DNA from: Psilocybe cubensis
Taxonomy: Eukaryota
Direction of reading: 5' to 3'
NCBI GenBank assembly: GCA_017499595.2
Contig: CM039000.1
Coordinates: 3,100,001 to 3,164,000, forward strand
Length of the DNA: 64,000 nt
Of this stretch, positions 3,606 to 63,710 are shown piece by piece (within the stretch, counting starts at the first letter, position 1; each line of letters begins with the position of its first letter). Under the pieces are notes generated by a model. It searched no databases. It was not told where the DNA came from and worked only from the letters and a program-made list of their open reading frames with translations. The translations under genes and the position numbers were made by a program.

Positions 3606-6600
3606 ATGGATATAATTCAAGACTCATCGAACACGGGCCCCTCGTCTCCTCAGAAAGGAAAGGGAGTGGAGGCCGATCCTAAGAGCTGGCGCGCAGGTTG
3701 GTGGGACTTCTATCCCTTGCTTGAGCACCCCAAACGGCAAGTTTTATTCCTCCGACTATTTGTTTATTGTCGAGTTGAAAATGTTCTCTCTTTGCAGCCC
3801 CGTGCAGTGGTCACGGTCGTCCGTTATATTTACTGCCCATGCAACTCAACCGTTTATAACTGGACGCCATTTTTCCTCGTCAAAACAATTTGTGTTGCCA
3901 TCTCCGGCACCCATTAGCAATTCACCCGCGTTGTATGACCCCCCTACTCTTATTTCAATTTCTCCGGACGATTTATGGCTACTTGCGTATTTCTATCGAC
4001 GCACGGGTGAAGGCATCGCGTGCCTTTGGAAGCGAGGCAATCAAATCGACAATTGGCAAGTGAAGGATTCTTGGACTTGTCTCAAAGGATGTGGTATTGT
4101 GACCGTTTCGTGGCTGGAATCGCAAAGAGAGGCAAGATATGCACCTTTTCAAATGTTACATTACGTTTACCTTGAAACAGTGGATAAATATCTCACCAAG
4201 TGGACCGACGCGCCTTCCCTTGCGTGGACCCAAGATACCCGTCGCAGACATGACAATGCTTTTTGTCACTGAAGACAATTATCTTCATGTTACGTATCTA
4301 CGACAATATACCAACACATTGAAGACCCTTAAGAAATCGTTGAACGTCCCTGGTGTAATGAAGGAAGGAATGTCGCCACTTGACTACGGCGAAAGCCCAA
4401 ATCATAGACAATGTATGAATGCAGCTATAGGACTTTGTTATAACGGTGGGGATTTTCCTATTTTTCAATCATTGTGTTGCTGAAATGTCATCAGATCCAA
4501 TTATTATGATTGCATCCCAGTCACGACGTATACCAGCTCCCTCAATTACTCCTACAATATCTGCCCCACCGTTCAATCATATGGATCTCTCAGCTGGTGG
4601 AGATTCTACGGATCCAAACGCAGCAGATCAAAGAACAAATGACTGGGAGAATTGGGGTGACGAAGGAGTCATCGAAATCTTCGAATGCTATATAAAATAC
4701 GACGGCGAATCCCTAAGTAATCAGTTGCATTTAATCTAATTAATAATATCTGACGAAAACTACAGTGCTTGGGATAATTCAATTAAGCCATATTGATTGT
4801 CCACCGTACTCCTTGACGAGCCTCGAATGGGTATCCGTCCCTTCGCCTAAAACCCCTGAAAAAGGGAAGATAGGATTGATGACGGCTTTTGCTGATTTTC
4901 ATGACTGTATGTTCTTTTGCCTGGGTCCTACGCATGTATTCATGACATATTCGCCGCACAGTCAAGAAACCACCAACATCGTTACTTAATTTTTATGGAC
5001 CATTCACCAAGACCAATGCAACTCGCCATGTAGTTAGAAATCAAACTTTTAATTCAAATTCATCATTCACTCATGTTTCCCAGGCTTCACTTTCAACTAC
5101 GAGGACGATAGAGGCCGGTGTTGTAACGCACATTGAGCCATTCATGGACACAGGAACACTTGCATTCGCATATATTTTGCATTACTCAGGGACTTATGGC
5201 AACGGTAAAAATAAACCGCAAAACACTGTGGTCGGGAACGTTCACGTGCTAAATATGTTAGTGTTCATAATCTTGCCATTCAATCATTCTAACATTGTTT
5301 GCTAGACCCACGTTTACTGAAAGCGCCAATTTTTCCCCTGCTACAGTTGAGGTTCCATTAGAAAAGTTAGGAGAAGACCGTAAGCATATTCCAGTCTTTT
5401 CGTGGCTATCCATATCACACAACAAATTCAGTGCCATTCTTTGCCGCAATTTCGCCCAATCGAAAATTTATATGCACGCTTTCATGTTCTTTGACTCGGC
5501 CTTCGCTTCAAACGCATGCACTTCCCACCTTGATCTCCTCGGAATTGATGTGTAAATCTGTTTGAAAACCTCTGTTGATATATGTTCAAACCTAACGATG
5601 ATGCGTAGCTTCACGTTTATCTTGGGCACTCGCCGCTGCCATTCTTTCACATAGATCTACAGTAGACCTTGTTCATGCCATATGTGGCCCACAAATGTCG
5701 AATGACGACGCAGCAACTGTCTTATCTAATGCTCTCGCACTATTGGAAAACTTCAATGGCACCGACTCACCATCTCGATATATTTGTGACATTATGGGAG
5801 TGGCGACCGATATATATAAGTACGTATGTTTAAGAAAACAGCGCTTTCTTGTATTTTTCATTGACTATTATATTCGAAGGTTGAAAGCAGAGTCTACTAA
5901 CGTAGAGTCAGAAAATGAATTGTTCCAATCCCGGTGCCAAGCAGCGCATGACATATGCTCCATGTCCGCATGTATCACTGCTTTTGAAGACAGCAAAGAA
6001 GGTGACGGGTATGATCTAGGTAGTTCCCCTCCTTGTTGCTTCCCCATCAACGAGAATTTGACTGCCGTCGTTTGTAGATGCTGTATGGCAACTAATTGCG
6101 TTTAGCAACTGGGTAATTGGGTTCACTGAGAAATTAATGAAAGCATGTATCCTTGCCAGCAATGCTATTGCAGAACCCTTAGAAGGATCACAGTCAGGTG
6201 TGTTGCTATTACTGTATACTATTTAGTTTGTTGAACATGTATATAGATTTTGGATTGTTCGAACAACCAATTCTATTGAACCTTTGCCACCCTTTTGCTC
6301 TGCGGAACTTCATTTCTTCATTGAACCACGTCAAATCTTTTCGGGAATTCTTAGCTGCTTTACCTGCTGGTAGCGGCAATGCACAAATCGCTCAGTCGGT
6401 CCTTGTAGATTCGGTCGATTACTCAGGTGTTGAGTTCGGGAGACTGGTACCCCTTCTACAGGAAAGTTTGGAGAGCGCTCAAAAGTTAGATGGTGAGCCT
6501 TTTGATACTCGCTGTTAACTTCTGAAAACTAACACAAAGTGTAGCTTCAGAATGTCGGAGGGCTCTGGCGGCGTGCTGTGCCACCAACTTGATGAAAACC

Positions 6601-56712: not shown

Positions 56713-57176
56713 TGTGGTTAAGAATGCGTGGGGAAGATGGATAAGATATGAACGAGCGAGTCGAGCAGAGGCTTGTATCCGGATAATAGGTTTATTTATT
56801 TAGACGAGCTGTAAGCCCTGTATGTATAGATGGATCATTAACATCAGCGATCGAGATCTGAGCTCGCTCATGTACCTGTTCCAAGCAGATTCTACGAGCA
56901 CATTGGATGAGGCATGATGTACCAGATATGCAGAAAGTTCAGCTCACAGTATCTTCCTGGCCAAGGCGCTGGAGTTGGGAGCGGCGGAGGTGAGGAAGAG
57001 GATTGGGGAAGGAGGAAGAGGTACGCTGGTCAAGCCGTACGTGGTCCCCCTATAATTGAATTGAAAAAGGCCCTGGATCCACGTGGGGCCGCCGGAAAGC
57101 CAAGCTAAAACCCCCGCGGCTAACAGGGACAAATATGTCCCAATTAGGGAATGGGAGCCGACAAGGACCTACAAGC

Positions 57177-57318
57177 TGTCACGGTTTAGACCGTGACCCT
57201 AGTCCGTGCACAGGTCCAAGCACCGTCTAGTATTTAGTTCGTAGATTACGCACCTTTGTTCCTTGTCGAATCAACACGTTTTCCCTGTTGTCTTCGAATC
57301 CTGTCCTTGCCCGTGACA
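57177..57318 (+). repeat. 5' LTR (142 bp)
   Basis: TG...CA ends with 8-bp terminal inverted repeats; identical by eye to 62726-62867. Confidence 0.95.
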
Positions 57319-57320
57319 GT

Positions 57321-57330
57321 TTGATTCGAC
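57321..57330 (+). other. Primer-binding site complementary to the LTR R region (self-priming type)
   Basis: TTGATTCGAC lies 2 nt after the LTR end and is the exact reverse complement of GTCGAATCAA at 57265-57274. It lacks the TGG start expected for a tRNA-CCA primer. Confidence 0.75.
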
Positions 57331-57434
57331 CACTAACATATTCTTGACAACTTTGTATTCAGTCTAATTTAACTTACCCCAGTTTATATTATCTTCTTTC
57401 CCACGAAAACCTGCCCAACCGTGTACAATCAACA

Positions 57435-58529
57435 ATGTCTCAGAATCCCCAGTCATCCTCTTCACTCCCTCCCTTTGAATATCCAACTCTCAACCCTCAA
57501 CAACCCTCAGAAAGTCAACAAACCTCCAACCAATCACCATTCTCTTCCGTCGATCATGAGCGAGATGTGTTGTATCGAAGCATCTTTGCTTTGGGAACAA
57601 ACATGGACAGTTTCGTGCGACATCAAACCGAAAGCACGGCTGCTACCAATGCCGTTCTCAATGCAATGATGGAACGCTTGACGCTTTCACGCCCAGCCGC
57701 GGCCAGTTCGAGTGTACCCAAGTTCCGTGAACCGCGCAAATTTAACAGGAAGGCTGACGAAGTCGAACCTTTCCTGCGCGAGATTCGTTACGCACTCAAC
57801 CTCCAAGCTAATGCGTTCTCGACCGAACTTGCGAAGTGTCAATATTTTGCATTGTACCTTGCAGATGGCACTCCGACAAGCTGGTACACTACGGTCGAAC
57901 GCTCGCCTGAGAAACGTGGACTCCTTGACAACTTCGAGTTACTTGTCAAGGACTTTATTGAACACTTCGACGAGCCGGATCGTTATGCTAAAGCTTTACG
58001 CAAGTTGCGCAAGCTTCGACAAACCGGTTCCGCCGCCGATTACACTTCGCGCTTTCTCGAACTTGTCAGTGAGCTTAACTGGACCGATCAGACGAAAATT
58101 CAGCACTACTTCGATGGATTGAAGGATACGGTGCAGGATACCTTGGTAAATCGCAAAGGGCGATATTTTACGGAGAAATTTGTGGAGTTTTACAAGCTAT
58201 GTATTGTTATCGACAATGAACTTCATGAACTCTCACTTAATCGCAGAGCAAACTCGTCCTTTGTACCCAAAAGAAATTCCTTCTCAAACCATTCCATCAT
58301 CGCTCCTCCTCAACATGCATCTACGTCTAGCAACCCGGATGTTGTGCCCATGGAAGTTGATGCTATGCGTCGAGGCATTACGTCCGAAGAACGTCAACGT
58401 CGTCTTAACGAGCATCTTTGTTTGTATTGCGGACAAGGACAACATTTGGCTGCAAATTGTCCCAACAAATCAGCAAAAGCAAAGTCGAAGGAGAAGAGAA
58501 AGGCTGCTCCCTCGTCGGGAAAAGCCTGA
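57435..58529 (+). CDS. gag: Retrotransposon Gag (capsid plus CCHC zinc knuckle)
   Basis: 364-aa ORF with LRQTGSAADYTSRF, YFDGLK, PMEVD and CLYCGQGQHLAANC. Confidence 0.95.
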   Translation: MSQNPQSSSSLPPFEYPTLNPQQPSESQQTSNQSPFSSVDHERDVLYRSIFALGTNMDSFVRHQTESTAATNAVLNAMMERLTLSRPAAASSSVPKFREPRKFNRKADEVEPFLREIRYALNLQANAFSTELAKCQYFALYLADGTPTSWYTTVERSPEKRGLLDNFELLVKDFIEHFDEPDRYAKALRKLRKLRQTGSAADYTSRFLELVSELNWTDQTKIQHYFDGLKDTVQDTLVNRKGRYFTEKFVEFYKLCIVIDNELHELSLNRRANSSFVPKRNSFSNHSIIAPPQHASTSSNPDVVPMEVDAMRRGITSEERQRRLNEHLCLYCGQGQHLAANCPNKSAKAKSKEKRKAAPSSGKA

Positions 58530-61500
58530 CCGGTAGTTCTTCGTTGGCCCTTGAGCTGCCGGAAAAAGATGAGAGGGCCCATCAGACCATTTCGGCGGCC
58601 AGCCACGTTCGTTGTTCTGACGGACGCTGGTTACCAGTTCGTCTTCCTGCTCCTGTTTATGTTTTCTCTTCTGCCCATTCTTCTGCTTCAATTTCGCCTG
58701 CTCATTTCTTTATTAACGTTACTTTATCTTTTCCGAATCACAAACCCATTCATACTTATGCCTTAATCGATTCTGGTTGCACAGATTCGTGTATTTCTGA
58801 CCGTTTTGCCACTCGTTATTCTCTTCCACGCCGTTTAAAACCTGTTCCTGTTCCAATACTTGCTGTTGACGACCGCCCAATTGCTTCGGGTCTAGTCACA
58901 CAAGATGTATTCACAAATCTTTCTGTTGATAAACATTCTGAGAACATTGCACTTTCAGTAGTATCTGTAGCATTTCCCATTATTCTAGGACTAGATTGGC
59001 TGCGTCGTCATAACCCTGCAGTCGACTGGTCTGATCCACTTATTTCTTTATCTTGTTGCAATCTTTCTCGTAGTAACAGAGTTTCAGTTCGACCTAGAGG
59101 CTTTGGTCTCGACAGTCATTCTAGTTCTAGTTTTGTTCAAGCTTGTTCTGTATTCCGAGTAGGGCTAGGCCTTGGTCTACGCGCCGACTCACCTTGGTTT
59201 TCCTCTGTCTTATCACCATCACCACCTCCCCAATCCTCTTCCTCTTCCACACCCAGTAACCCTCCCGCACCTTCGTTCCTCAGCTTCATGACCCGATGGA
59301 CTGGCTACGGTCGCTCCAACCTCGATGACATCACCATGAACCCGAAACCAAAAATCAAACTCCTCAACATCAACCGCTTCAAAAAGTATTCAAAAAATCA
59401 ACAAGTCTGCCTCCTCCGTGTTCATTCCCCCGATTCTCCCGCCTACATTGCCGCTACTAACCTCTCACCTTCACCTTCTATCAACGACATTTCCGAACCG
59501 CCTCCCATTCCAGCCGACTCACCACTTCCTGCAAAGTACTTTCCCTGGGCCAATTCAGTCTTTTCACCAACAGCCGTAGACGAATTACCTCCTCATCGTC
59601 CTTACGACTGTGCAATCGAGATTGAAGAAGGAAAGGAACCTCCATTTGGCCCAATGTATCGTTTAACCCAGGATGAACAAAAAGCCTTGTCGACGTACAT
59701 CGAAGACAATCTCAAAAAAGGCTTTATTCGTCGATCTACATCCTCCGCCGCCTCTCCTATTCTTTTTGTTCGCAAGAAGACGGGTGATTTACGCTTATGT
59801 GTAGATTACCGCGGGCTGAATGCGATCACCAAAAAGAACCGCTACCCTCTTCCTCACATTGACGACCTCCTCGATCGTACTCAAGGTTGCAAATTATTCA
59901 CTGTCATCGACCTTAAAAATGCATTCAATCTGATTCGCATTAAGGAAGGTGATGAGTGGAAGACTGCATTTCGGACAGCTCTCGGCCTTTACGAGTACCT
60001 TGTCATGCCTTTTGGTCTTACCAATGCTCCATCCGTTTTTCAAGCTTTTATTCAAGACACCCTTTGCGATTTTATAGGTGTATTTTGTGTTGTTTATCTT
60101 GATGATATTTTGATATTTTCTCGCACTCAGGAGGAACACGATATGCAGGTCAAGCTTGTTCTCGACCGATTGAAAGATGCACGCCTATTCGCTAATCCGA
60201 AGAAGTGTGAATTTGACAAGTCCGAGGTTGAGTACTTGGGGTATTTGATTGGTGCTGACGGCATCAAGATGAACCCTAAGAAGCTTGCCACGATAGCCGA
60301 GTGGCCTGTACCTCGTTCTACTCATGATGTGCAAGTTTTTCTTGGATTTTGTAATTTTTACCGTCGTTTCGTTGATCATTATGCAGATATTGCCCTTCCT
60401 CTTCATCGTTTGACTCGGAAAAATGTTTCTTTTCATTGGACCGACGTCGAAAGAAATGCTTTTGAAACTTTGAAACGTTCTTTTACTTCTTACCCTGTTT
60501 TACGTCATTTTGATCCTTCCAAACCTGCCACTCTTTCTACCGACGCTTCTGACTTTGCTCTTTCTGGTATTCTTCAACAACCTGACAAAGATGGTCTTCT
60601 CCACCCTGTGGCCTTTTATTCTAGAAAATTCTCCCCTGCGGAAATCAATTACGAAGTCCACGACAAAGAACTTCTTGCCATTGTCGACTCGTTCCGAGAT
60701 ATGCGCGCTTGGCTCATGGGTACTACTCATCCAATTTCAGTATTTTGCGACCACAAAAATCTGGAATACTTCATGAATACCCATGTTCTGAATCGTCGCC
60801 AAGCCCGCTGGTCAATGTTTCTCTCGGAATTCGATTTTCAACTCGACTGGAAACCAGGTTTACAAAATCCTGCCGATGGACCTTCTCGACAACCCGATTT
60901 TGAGCCCAAAAGGGGAGATGACGTCTCTGTCGCCCAGAATAAAACACTTCTCACACCCTACCATCTTCAACGCATTCATTCTTTTTCTTCACCCATTCCT
61001 CGTCCTACCCCTACAATTTCAATTTCTGCTACTAGTTCCACAATTACAACCCTTTCTATTGACAATTCCGAACTTTTACAGCGTTTCCAGGCGGCCTATC
61101 GAGAGGATACAGAATGGCGCGAAGCACTCGTTCATGGAAACCCGGATTTCTCTGTCAAGGATGATATCATTTTTTATAAAGGTCGTGTCTTTGTTCCACA
61201 GTCCTTGCGTGCTGAAATCCTCTACCAGCGCCATGATTGTGTGCTTAGTGGTCATCCCGGTCGCACCCTGACTGCCAGTAATGTCCTTCGTGACTACAAT
61301 TGGCCTGGAGTCCAGACATATATCCGCCGCTATGTTCAAGCATGCGACGTATGTAATCGTATCAAGATTCCACGCCACAAGCCTTACGGTCTCTTGAAAC
61401 CCCTCGACATTCCTACGCGTCCATGGAAGTCTATTTCGATGGATTTCATCGTCAAATTACCCAAATCCCACAATTATGACTCGATTTGGGTTGTTTGCGA

Positions 61501-62713
61501 TCGTCTTACCCGTGCCGCTCATTTCATACCATGCAATGAAACAATTTCCGCCCCTGATCTTGCGTGGTTATTTGTCGATCGCATACTTCGTTATCATGGT
61601 CTGCCGGACTCAATCATCTCGGATCGAGGTTCACTGTTTGTCTCAAACTTCTGGAAAGCTCTGATGTCTCGTCTTGACATTAAAACTCGTCATTCCACTG
61701 CCTATCATCCCCGTACAGACGGTCTTACTGAACGGACGAATCAGTCACTCGAGACATACCTTCGTGCATACTGCTCCTATCAACAAGATGATTGGGTTGA
61801 TTACTTACCACTCGCCGAGTTCGTTTTCAACAACACAGTTAATTCTTCGACCAAACAAACACCTTTTTATGCCAACTATGCTTATCATCCCACCTTTTCT
61901 CCTCAAATTGCAGAGATTTCTACGGTGCCAGCTGCTGAAGACTTAGCCAAACGTCTCGACGTTATTCATCAAGAACTCAAGGCCGAACTTCAGTTTGCTC
62001 AGGAACGTCAGAAGGAAACTTTTGATCGTAAAGTTCTCCCTTCGCCAAAGTACGCCCCTGATCAGCTCGTTTGGCTCCTTCGTCGTAACATCCGTACCAC
62101 GCGCCCTTCGTTGAAGCTCGATCACCGTCGCCTGGGACCGTATCCCGTTATTCGAGAAATAGGAAATGATTCTTATCTTTTAAAACTTCCGCCCTATCTT
62201 TCGCGTTTACATCCCGTTTTTCATACTTCGCTTCTTGAACCTTACTCTGACCCTTCTGAATTCCACCCCCATGCTTCGCCTGACCTTTTTGTTCTCGCGG
62301 ATGACCCCGCATTATCTATTTCTTCCTTCCTTGATTGTCGTAAAGTAGGTCATCGTTACGAGTATCTCGTGCGATGGCAAAATTCTTCTGACTCCGAAGA
62401 TTCTTGGATTCCACTTTCTGATATTCCTACATCTTATAACGAACTTTTAACTCGATTCCACCGTCGGCATCCTCGTGCACCACACCCTCATACTTTCGAT
62501 TTCGACCGTAACCTCCACAACATGGACAATCCGACGGTACCCGAGGAAAACAATTCAAACCCTTCCATTCCTTCTGATTCTATTTCACACATCCGTCCGA
62601 CTACCCCTCCTCCTGTTCGTAACAACCTCCGTAGTTCTTATGTACCCCCTCCTTTTACCACCCTTCGTTCTGGTCGTATATCTCGTCCTCGACCTTCCCC
62701 AGATGCCGCATAA
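58418..62713 (+). CDS. pol: Retrotransposon Pol (protease, RT, RNase H, integrase, chromodomain), -1 frame relative to gag; probably entered by frameshift near 58520
   Basis: ALIDSGC (PR); LCVDYRGLN, MPFGLTNAP, YLDDILI (RT); TDASD, DKELLAI (RH); H..H..CDVC, SMDFI, SDRG, DGLTER (IN); GPY; YLVRW..EDSWIP (chromo). Uninterrupted 1431-codon frame. Confidence 0.95.
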   Translation: MFVLRTRTTFGCKLSQQISKSKVEGEEKGCSLVGKSLTGSSSLALELPEKDERAHQTISAASHVRCSDGRWLPVRLPAPVYVFSSAHSSASISPAHFFINVTLSFPNHKPIHTYALIDSGCTDSCISDRFATRYSLPRRLKPVPVPILAVDDRPIASGLVTQDVFTNLSVDKHSENIALSVVSVAFPIILGLDWLRRHNPAVDWSDPLISLSCCNLSRSNRVSVRPRGFGLDSHSSSSFVQACSVFRVGLGLGLRADSPWFSSVLSPSPPPQSSSSSTPSNPPAPSFLSFMTRWTGYGRSNLDDITMNPKPKIKLLNINRFKKYSKNQQVCLLRVHSPDSPAYIAATNLSPSPSINDISEPPPIPADSPLPAKYFPWANSVFSPTAVDELPPHRPYDCAIEIEEGKEPPFGPMYRLTQDEQKALSTYIEDNLKKGFIRRSTSSAASPILFVRKKTGDLRLCVDYRGLNAITKKNRYPLPHIDDLLDRTQGCKLFTVIDLKNAFNLIRIKEGDEWKTAFRTALGLYEYLVMPFGLTNAPSVFQAFIQDTLCDFIGVFCVVYLDDILIFSRTQEEHDMQVKLVLDRLKDARLFANPKKCEFDKSEVEYLGYLIGADGIKMNPKKLATIAEWPVPRSTHDVQVFLGFCNFYRRFVDHYADIALPLHRLTRKNVSFHWTDVERNAFETLKRSFTSYPVLRHFDPSKPATLSTDASDFALSGILQQPDKDGLLHPVAFYSRKFSPAEINYEVHDKELLAIVDSFRDMRAWLMGTTHPISVFCDHKNLEYFMNTHVLNRRQARWSMFLSEFDFQLDWKPGLQNPADGPSRQPDFEPKRGDDVSVAQNKTLLTPYHLQRIHSFSSPIPRPTPTISISATSSTITTLSIDNSELLQRFQAAYREDTEWREALVHGNPDFSVKDDIIFYKGRVFVPQSLRAEILYQRHDCVLSGHPGRTLTASNVLRDYNWPGVQTYIRRYVQACDVCNRIKIPRHKPYGLLKPLDIPTRPWKSISMDFIVKLPKSHNYDSIWVVCDRLTRAAHFIPCNETISAPDLAWLFVDRILRYHGLPDSIISDRGSLFVSNFWKALMSRLDIKTRHSTAYHPRTDGLTERTNQSLETYLRAYCSYQQDDWVDYLPLAEFVFNNTVNSSTKQTPFYANYAYHPTFSPQIAEISTVPAAEDLAKRLDVIHQELKAELQFAQERQKETFDRKVLPSPKYAPDQLVWLLRRNIRTTRPSLKLDHRRLGPYPVIREIGNDSYLLKLPPYLSRLHPVFHTSLLEPYSDPSEFHPHASPDLFVLADDPALSISSFLDCRKVGHRYEYLVRWQNSSDSEDSWIPLSDIPTSYNELLTRFHRRHPRAPHPHTFDFDRNLHNMDNPTVPEENNSNPSIPSDSISHIRPTTPPPVRNNLRSSYVPPPFTTLRSGRISRPRPSPDAA
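58517..58579 (+). other. -1 programmed ribosomal frameshift signal: slippery heptamer plus H-type pseudoknot
   Basis: G GGA AAA in gag phase at 58517-58523, 6-nt spacer, stem 1 58530-58539/58553-58562, stem 2 58546-58552/58573-58579. Confidence 0.8.
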
Positions 62714-62725
62714 AAGGGAAGATGA
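62712..62725 (+). other. Polypurine tract
   Basis: AAAAGGGAAGATGA abuts the 3' LTR and overlaps the pol stop codon (TAA 62711-62713). Confidence 0.8.
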
Positions 62726-62867
62726 TGTCACGGTTTAGACCGTGACCCTAGTCCGTGCACAGGTCCAAGCACCGTCTAGTATTTAGTTCGTAGATTACGC
62801 ACCTTTGTTCCTTGTCGAATCAACACGTTTTCCCTGTTGTCTTCGAATCCTGTCCTTGCCCGTGACA
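62726..62867 (+). repeat. 3' LTR (142 bp)
   Basis: Identical by eye to 57177-57318 and followed by the TSD CAAGC. Confidence 0.95.
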
Positions 62868-63710
62868 CAAGCTTTTTGTGAGGGTTATTGATGAAGAGTG
62901 ATAGAGCGGCCAATGCGACGTCAATTTATATAGAAAACTGCCGGAATATCTCTGATTTATATGTTTTCGAGTTTTACGATGAAATATTTTTATCTACAGG
63001 AGGTGTTCGCCTTCAAGTTTGAAAAAGCCCGTCAAATGCGCACCAAATGTACAAAATTGGGATCATATAAGTAACAAATCTTTTGGCAGAGCTAAGGGTC
63101 TAATCTATAAAGATATAATATCAGTTTAAAGTCCTAACAGTGGGTATGAACCCAGGATGCTGCGCTGCGCTTTATTTTTAGACATCTGATCCTCGCGTCG
63201 TTTGAGCTCTGTGCATCCTTAGCTTCACCATAGCCTTGCACACAATACATGATTAATAGAGTAGTTCGAGTCAATTTATGAGCAACAAACGATCTTAAGA
63301 ACCCAACACAAATATTCAAGAATCAAGGCGTTGTATTTTAAAAAATAATTCATCAGATACCAATAATAAAACGTATCTACGCAGCATCATTCTCACATTA
63401 TCATAGATAATCCAAGAGACACAATCTGCTCTTCCCAACTCCTCCTCGAGAAACATCAGACAAGGGCTGAAGCAGAGGAAAGGACGATGCCCAAATAGGC
63501 AACAAGTGATACTGCAAGGCGCGATTCCCACGCCCCTTTGTCTCTTCCCCGCGATCATCCCACCTCGCAAGGCTGGAGCTCCACGCTCGCGGAGTCGACC
63601 ATCGCCCTTCTCTCTGTGCCTGCGCCTGACGGCGGGGCCTGTACTTGTTCCTGTACAATACCACTGACGACCGATACCCATAACGAGCTTGACGACATTT
63701 ACTGATCACC

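Follow-up and report, generated by a model that had tools for sequence, protein, structure and literature searches.

The 64,000-nt stretch of Psilocybe cubensis DNA analysed here (GCA_017499595.2, contig CM039000.1, positions 3,100,001 to 3,164,000 of the forward strand; hereafter the window, whose own numbering is used throughout) contains an intact Ty3/Gypsy chromovirus at 57177-62867 (5691 bp). We consider it probable that the 5' region of this recently mobile element is a Tf1-type self-priming module, in which the beginning of the element RNA, encoded within the long terminal repeat (LTR), would pair with the primer-binding site (PBS) behind the LTR and would be used as the primer of reverse transcription. 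An earlier note on this DNA had proposed priming of this type, with a primer of ~10 nt at or near 57265, and the layout of related elements, compensatory change and the spacing of a TATA-like box support that core proposal. Departures from tRNA priming are few among retroelements; self-priming is one of them, and to our knowledge it has been proved by experiment for fission-yeast elements only.

In the mechanism that we propose, the transcript would begin at 57265 or no more than a few bases from it, ~30 nt downstream of the TATA-like box. Its first 10 nt (57265-57274) would fold back across a 46-nt R-U5 loop onto the PBS (57321-57330), and the RNase H of the element, by analogy with Tf1, would cut the RNA after the paired segment. 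From the freed 3' end, minus-strand DNA would then be synthesised through U5 and R without the use of a tRNA. The attached primer would be copied during plus-strand strong-stop synthesis, by which the site would be regenerated in each cycle. Because of this regeneration, primer and site could stay complementary while both drift between families.

Complementarity between the LTR and the primer-binding site

The ends of the LTR were defined independently of the complementarity, by the identical 142-nt repeat at both ends of the element and by the flanking CAAGC duplication (Table 1). Because these two features fix the LTR end, the PBS position given in the earlier note holds: the putative PBS, TTGATTCGAC, starts at +3 after the terminal CA of the LTR. 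It is a perfect complement of GTCGAATCAA within the LTR, which would be the 10 nt with which the genomic RNA begins. The complementarity extends over exactly 10 bp, and the pairs flanking it would be T-C and C-T. If the border of R is placed from the TATA spacing, the LTR would be divided into U3 (57177-57264) and R-U5 (57265-57318). The positions reported earlier for both arms, for TATTTAG at 57231 and for a CACG/CGTG extension of the helix, which is discussed below, were all right.

The chance of finding such a match was estimated in two ways. With the position left free, a 10-bp inverted repeat appeared in 17/100 shuffles of a 1400-nt scan window (loops of 25-300 nt), and on this count the complementarity could be a chance inverted repeat without function. 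Since the position-free scan does not discriminate, tests anchored to the position were used, and the significance of the match depends on its position. With the LTR fixed, 4/2000 random 22-nt windows taken from the interior gave a complement of at least 10 nt to the LTR. The same positional pattern also recurs with different sequences in related elements. We regard a chance origin as barely credible, since it is effectively refuted by these comparative data.

No TGG was present in the 22 nt following the LTR (57319-57340), so a canonical site for a tRNA 3' end is lacking, in agreement with the earlier statement that there is no tRNA PBS. No tRNA genes were found in the 64-kb window or in the fetched loci of relatives, and an Rfam scan of 57000-57600 returned only a chance match below threshold. 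A host tRNA or tRNA fragment might nevertheless pair with 57319-57340, which would make the match in the LTR incidental. The search for tRNAs was confined to the window and the fetched loci, and sites for internal tRNA fragments (half-tRNAs) exist in other retrotransposon groups (PMC6317226). The missing TGG argues against this explanation, and so does the finding, described in the next section, that almost every related family has a different site and that the LTR segment always changes along with it. Priming by a tRNA is in our estimate highly improbable.

Layout and co-variation in related elements

Relatives were collected from public contigs by their reverse transcriptase (RT), 17 from IMG/VR and 80 from metagenomes (L001-L097), with RT identities of 35-57%. 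A second scan of viral contigs, made with the integrase region, yielded no relatives. The LTR ends were defined from LTR pairs in seven elements, among which the incomplete 3' copy of L024 was placed by homology to L026. Five of the seven (the window element, L024, L026, L048 and L095) have a perfect complement of 9-10 nt exactly at +3. Random windows matched equally well in 29/2000 cases for L024, in 55/2000 for L026, and in 0/2000 for both L048 and L095. The other two, L018 and L051, are decayed old copies, with LTR identities of 92% and 89%. The site of L018 is matched at 10/11 positions by its 3' LTR and with three mismatches by its 5' LTR. For L051, whose decayed site excluded it from the 17-element set described below, two positions of the PBS are changed and those of the primer are unaltered.

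A pattern scan for CA, 2 nt and an arm of at least 9 nt whose complement lies 25-300 nt upstream yielded 0.51 matches/kb in the zone expected from the position of the RT, compared with 0.10/kb elsewhere and 0.11/kb on the reverse strand, corresponding to a five-fold enrichment in the zone. A scan constrained by the TATA-like box returned 15 rows on the plus strand, which were reduced to nine distinct valid loci; the duplicates came from doubled circular contigs (L008, L016, L036) and from L021, in which both repeats were detected, and two rows (L015, L043) were discarded as slicing artefacts. On the minus strand it returned four rows, of which L096 was a real element in reverse orientation and the other three were 8-mers. 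A common layout was found in 17 elements, including a family found through the LTR-end motif: the LTR ends with CA (TA in one), and is followed by a 2-nt spacer, present in 17/17, and by a site of 9-13 nt that is complementary to a segment of the LTR. The match is perfect in 14 elements and contains a single G-U in one, and L018 has three mismatches (with its 5' LTR). Primer and site form 11 distinct sequence pairs among the 17 elements. Because site and LTR segment change together across families, a conserved host tRNA is disfavoured as the primer and the element's own RNA is favoured.

Compensatory changes between R and PBS, which the earlier note had suggested looking for in related copies, were found in one family of relatives, in which eight sequences could be aligned. 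All of the cells of the helix were paired in this alignment (78/78), 4/10 pairs had changed on both sides, and one pair included G-U. The covariation score was 0.361 compared with 0.124 in shuffles, and it was reached by 0/500 shuffles; controls slid by 1-3 columns were 32-45% paired. RNAalifold gave the primer-site helix unprompted from the family alignment, together with a nested U5 hairpin adjoining the site. In the comparison of L048 with L012, C-to-T in the primer goes together with G-to-A in the site.

Co-variation proves that pairing is selected, not what the pairing is for. The duplex might be selected as an RNA structure that serves a different purpose, for instance in packaging, dimerisation or translational control, and priming might be accomplished by something else; a competing hairpin that uses 57294-57300 hints at structural switching. 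However, the 3' arm lies exactly at the place of a PBS (CA + 2 nt) in 17/17 elements, no alternative TGG-type PBS follows the LTR, and the same layout is an experimentally proven primer in Tf1 (PMC7175516, PMC10085805). We consider a role other than priming very unlikely.

A quick maximum-likelihood tree was made from 83 RT segments, with SH-aLRT as its only support measure and with the window element and contigs as its rows. The window element was placed in a clade of 14 rows (SH-aLRT 100). Seven of these rows include the 5' region: the window element, L018, L021, L024, L026, L036 and L051. Complementarity was perfect in five of the seven, and the remaining two are decayed copies. All further examples of the layout belong to the other large clades.

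The TATTTAG that had been noticed 34 nt before 57265 lies where it was described, and its distance is typical: a TATA-like box is located 31-35 nt before the first base of the primer in 13/17 elements, with no second TATA-like match within 60 nt upstream in those 13. Degenerate TATA-like versions are present at the corresponding place in L036 and L048. This spacing supports a putative transcript start at or near 57265. Of the 15 runs listed, none that contains the element is recorded as RNA. No poly(A)-tailed contigs marking transcript ends were found, and two runs guessed to be RNA held next to none of the element's words, which says nothing either way.

A variant of self-priming would use an internal primer. 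Transcription would then start upstream of 57265, or at multiple positions, and only the cut that makes the 3' end would matter. L024 and L026, whose sole TATA-like box precedes the complementary segment by 50-52 nt, and L051, with the same spacing, fit such a variant. It is opposed by the box at 31-35 nt, without any other match within 60 nt, in 13/17 elements, and by Tf1, whose primer consists of the first 11 bases (PMC7175516). We judge an internal primer to be unlikely, and a primer formed by the RNA 5' end is the reading that we prefer.

Several other properties were observed in the relatives. In-frame stops were present in the pol regions of 88/98 sources (TGA 229, TAG 164, TAA 36). An alternative genetic code was rejected as their cause, since all three stops occur, with TGA mostly opposite arginine and TAG often opposite tryptophan. 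This pattern indicates decay by transitions, and the C-to-T / G-to-A decay resembles mutation by methylation or of the repeat-induced point mutation (RIP) type. The IMG/VR 'viral' contigs (L001-L017), all of which have in-frame stops, are LTR retrotransposons that were assembled as circular, the collapse of the two LTRs having produced exact overlaps of 27-123 nt at the termini. In L021, a 96%-identical terminal repeat (1-556 and 5770-6329) extends beyond the presumed LTR end into the leader, suggesting tandem elements with a common LTR or a chimeric assembly. L001, L013, L014 and L031 carry an extra inverted repeat of 9-10 nt (TAGAACAACT / AGTTGTTCTA) within the LTR, with a loop of 254-271 nt; in L031 it is located 44 nt before the self-priming site. 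In L039 (1-700), ~220 nt after the LTR are missing, including the PBS and the start of gag. The window element (57331-57338, CACTAAC) and L018 (8444-8451, CCACTACC) resemble each other in the bases that directly follow the PBS, though the PBS differs, and these bases may be a conserved PBS-adjacent element.

RNA folding and strain variation

The primer-site duplex alone had a predicted energy of -9.6 kcal/mol, and the version extended by CACG/CGTG had -13.0 kcal/mol. When the duplex was enforced, the best fold (-15.5 kcal/mol) contained a local U5 hairpin directly before the PBS in place of the extension, and a comparable U5 hairpin adjoining the PBS was predicted in a related family. The earlier note had continued the helix with CACG (57275-57278) and CGTG (57312-57315) across a bulge of ACAGT (57316-57320). 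The complementarity of these bases was confirmed, but folding did not favour their pairing (-13.0 vs -15.5 kcal/mol). The extension, with 4 bp and without alignable close relatives, is too short to judge alone. Candidates for the side duplexes of a 'pretzel' structure, which has been described for the Tf1/sushi group, are likewise short, namely the 4-bp CACG/CGTG and a pairing of 57286-57291 with 57332-57338, and they compete with the U5 hairpin.

The primer core, TCGAATC, occurs once more in U5 (57294-57300). In the unconstrained minimum fold (-16.1 kcal/mol), the PBS is paired with this second copy and not with the primer. A second complement of 7 nt was found in 1/1000 shuffles of the loop, so that the copy appears non-random by this post-hoc test, and no comparable second copy was found in 15 relatives. 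The copy could have been left by an internal duplication, or it could be a regulatory competitor. In one speculative model, TCGAATC, extended by CUGUC/GACAG, would act as a built-in competitor that sequesters the PBS in a U5 hairpin, and the RNA would be a two-state switch. The PBS-sequestering hairpin and the primer-PBS duplex are mutually exclusive and have about equal predicted energy. If the model were true, the switch would decide between reverse transcription of the transcript and its translation or packaging. We hold this model to be rather unlikely.

The R-U5 loop was described in the earlier note as very compact. This description applies in a relative sense only: the loop of the window element has 46 nt, and those of L042 and L096 have 44 nt and 43 nt.

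Raw DNA reads or contigs were compared across 56900-57700, among them reads of another strain with the same species label (X12). In strain X12, 23 reads pass from the upstream flank straight into the sequence following 62872, with a single CAAGC, indicating an empty site. In strain X9, a contig joins the flank to the LTR, indicating that the insertion is present. Because of the empty site in X12, the insertion is polymorphic between strains and young, which agrees with the identical LTRs. Read depth in X12 was ~20-28 in the flank, ~80-100 in the LTR and ~30 in the interior, suggesting one or two full copies and a few extra LTRs. The LTR variants observed in X12 (C>T at 57240, G>A at 57250, G>C at 57258, G>A at 57268 and G>A at 57278), each in ~15-30% of the LTR reads, probably stem from a diverged or solo LTR elsewhere. 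No PBS variant with a frequency of at least 5% was found in the X12 reads. Nothing was obtained from X11 across 56900-57700, and X10 gave one 151-nt contig, in which the LTR is followed by unrelated sequence and which was of no help for co-variation. X9 has a variant polypurine tract, AAAAGGGGAGATGA, where the window has AAAAGGGAAGATGA (62712-62725).

Several observations weigh against self-priming in the form proposed here. The start at 57265 is placed from TATA spacing, not from RNA 5' ends, and a start exactly at the primer is not universal, because the TATA-like boxes of L024 and L026, and with the same spacing that of the L051 sequence, lie 50-52 nt upstream. When an 81-nt context was folded, the primer duplex and the rival hairpin were roughly equal (pair probability ~0.5 each), and in a 176-nt context the rival hairpin dominated (~0.9 vs 0.1). 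The G>A change at 57268, which lies inside the primer, is present in 13/76 LTR reads of X12, and the PBS has no matching change. In 10/17 elements, the LTR end was placed by the motif instead of an LTR pair. In L039, the LTR contains the primer and there is no PBS; because its alignment to the relatives begins only ~220 nt further in, L039 appears to be a deletion derivative. The search for tRNAs covered the window and the fetched loci, in none of which a tRNA gene was found.

Element anatomy and comparison with known systems

Table 1. Features of the chromovirus and its insertion site (positions in the window)
Feature	Position	Strand	Remarks
Target-site duplication CAAGC	upstream 57172..57176, downstream 62868-62872	+	flanks both LTR outer ends
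5' LTR, 142 bp, TG...CA, terminal inverted repeat TGTCACGG/CCGTGACA	57177..57318	+	100% identical to 3' LTR
TATA-like box TATTTAG	57231..57237	+	34 nt before first base of primer
Putative self-primer GTCGAATCAA	57265..57274	+	perfect complement of 57321-57330
Second primer-core copy TCGAATC in U5	57294..57300	+	pairs with PBS, competes with primer
Predicted U5 hairpin CUGUC...GACAG	57301..57319	+	directly before PBS; compatible with primer-PBS duplex; from constrained fold
Two-base spacer GT	57319..57320	+	between LTR terminal CA and PBS
Putative primer-binding site TTGATTCGAC	57321..57330	+	starts at +3 after LTR terminal CA
gag, 364 amino acids, CCHC zinc knuckle	57435..58529	+	open reading frame; Pfam Retrotrans_gag 8.2e-13
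pol open frame, -1 relative to gag: protease, RT, RNase H, integrase, Tf2-like SH3, chromodomain	58409..62713	+	Pfam
GGGAAAA, candidate -1 frameshift site	58517..58523	+	4 nt before gag stop codon; predicted
Polypurine tract AAAAGGGAAGATGA	62712..62725	+	adjoins 3' LTR
3' LTR, 142 bp	62726..62867	+	100% identical to 5' LTR

Self-comparison of the 64-kb window revealed no further copies, so that the element is present there as a single copy. The order of the Pfam domains in pol (RVP_2, RVT_1, RT_RNaseH, Integrase_H2C2, rve) is that of Ty3/Gypsy elements, and a chromodomain (Pfam Chromo, 1.5e-07, pol residues 1308-1353) follows SH3_Tf2-1 on the C-terminal side of the integrase. The best PDB matches of pol were Ty3 Gag-Pol 7q5b (3.3e-137) and 4ol8 (3.8e-81), and the Atlas clusters nearest to pol were mostly from Basidiomycota, which weakly supports a basidiomycete as the host. 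GGGAAAA at 58517-58523 matches the pattern X XXY YYZ when it is read in the gag frame, and is likely the -1 frameshift site by which gag would be linked to pol. Bases 57178-57197 of the LTR (GTCACGG TTTAGA CCGTGAC) match themselves at 90% over 20 nt. Because the first 20 nt are nearly palindromic in this way, the LTR-end motif occurs three times in the 142 bp.

The proposed mechanism is already described or widely predicted for the Tf1/sushi group, a basidiomycete element included (PMC7175516). The window element is a new example of a known mechanism, the understanding of which is unchanged. As an intact copy with identical LTRs, a strain-polymorphic insertion, and an LTR and loop among the shortest in the sample, it would be convenient for testing self-priming in a basidiomycete-type host. 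The 11 co-varying pairs, the fixed 2-nt spacer and the TATA-like box ~33 nt before the primer could be combined into a rule for the annotation of such elements and the prediction of their transcript starts.

According to the excerpts of the literature drawn on here, the first 11 RNA bases of Tf1 form a duplex with the PBS, and the RNase H cut falls between bases 11 and 12 (PMC7175516). Self-priming is a common feature of Tf1/sushi chromoviruses, in which the last two bases of the LTR are always CA, and in this group the primer duplex is enclosed by a three-duplex 'pretzel' (PMC10085805). What the earlier note had said of Tf1, namely that its first 11 nt are the primer, agrees with the former source, and its remark that the mechanism has been proposed for other Tf1/sushi-group elements agrees with the latter. 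Self-priming of Tj1 from S. japonicus was inferred from the same kind of sequence evidence as was used here (PMC4600332), and self-priming was also proposed for Tcn1 of the basidiomycete Cryptococcus neoformans (PMC7175516). Among surveyed plant elements, 12% were predicted to self-prime, mainly in the Tcn1 and TAR lineages (PMC6317226). In the Tcn1-like element SM-Tcn1, a tRNA site and a self-priming site are both described as absent (PMC2864245).

At every point where its sequence could be compared, the window element is constructed as one that would work like a Tf1/sushi element, and in the RT tree of the contigs it clusters with others that have self-complementary sites. It shares with Tf1 and Tf2 of Schizosaccharomyces pombe, as these are described in the same excerpts, the Ty3/Gypsy organization with a chromodomain, a PBS that follows a CA-ended LTR and is complementary to the element's own RNA, and a primer of ~10-11 nt. 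It differs from Tf1 in the length of the duplex, 10 nt as opposed to 11 nt, and in the junction of gag and pol, which are connected by a -1 frame change here and form a single open reading frame in Tf1 (PMC10085805). Further differences are that U5 of the window element carries the second primer-core copy competing for the PBS, that the pretzel side duplexes are short candidates here, and that cleavage and priming are postulated by analogy. The LTR of Tf1 is also much longer than the 142 bp of the window element.

Tj1, Tosmo1-3 and Tcry1 resemble the window element in that their self-priming was likewise deduced from sequence, with a PBS complementary to the presumed RNA 5' end and a pretzel that can be drawn (PMC4600332, PMC10085805). 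In contrast to the -1 frame change found here, these elements have an in-frame stop between gag and pol (PMC4600332). Tj1 was shown to transpose, whereas activity of the window element is suggested by the identical LTRs and the empty site. Tcn1 is similar as a basidiomycete chromovirus that was proposed to self-prime (PMC7175516), and the Atlas clusters nearest to the window element are also mostly from Basidiomycota; most plant elements of the Tcn1 clade, which is represented in non-seed plants, were predicted to self-prime (PMC6317226). Ty3 of Saccharomyces cerevisiae belongs to the same superfamily, has the same domain order and provides the best PDB match. Ty3 is primed by the initiator tRNA and is not known to have a chromodomain. 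The window element differs from it in both respects, having a chromodomain and no TGG-type site.

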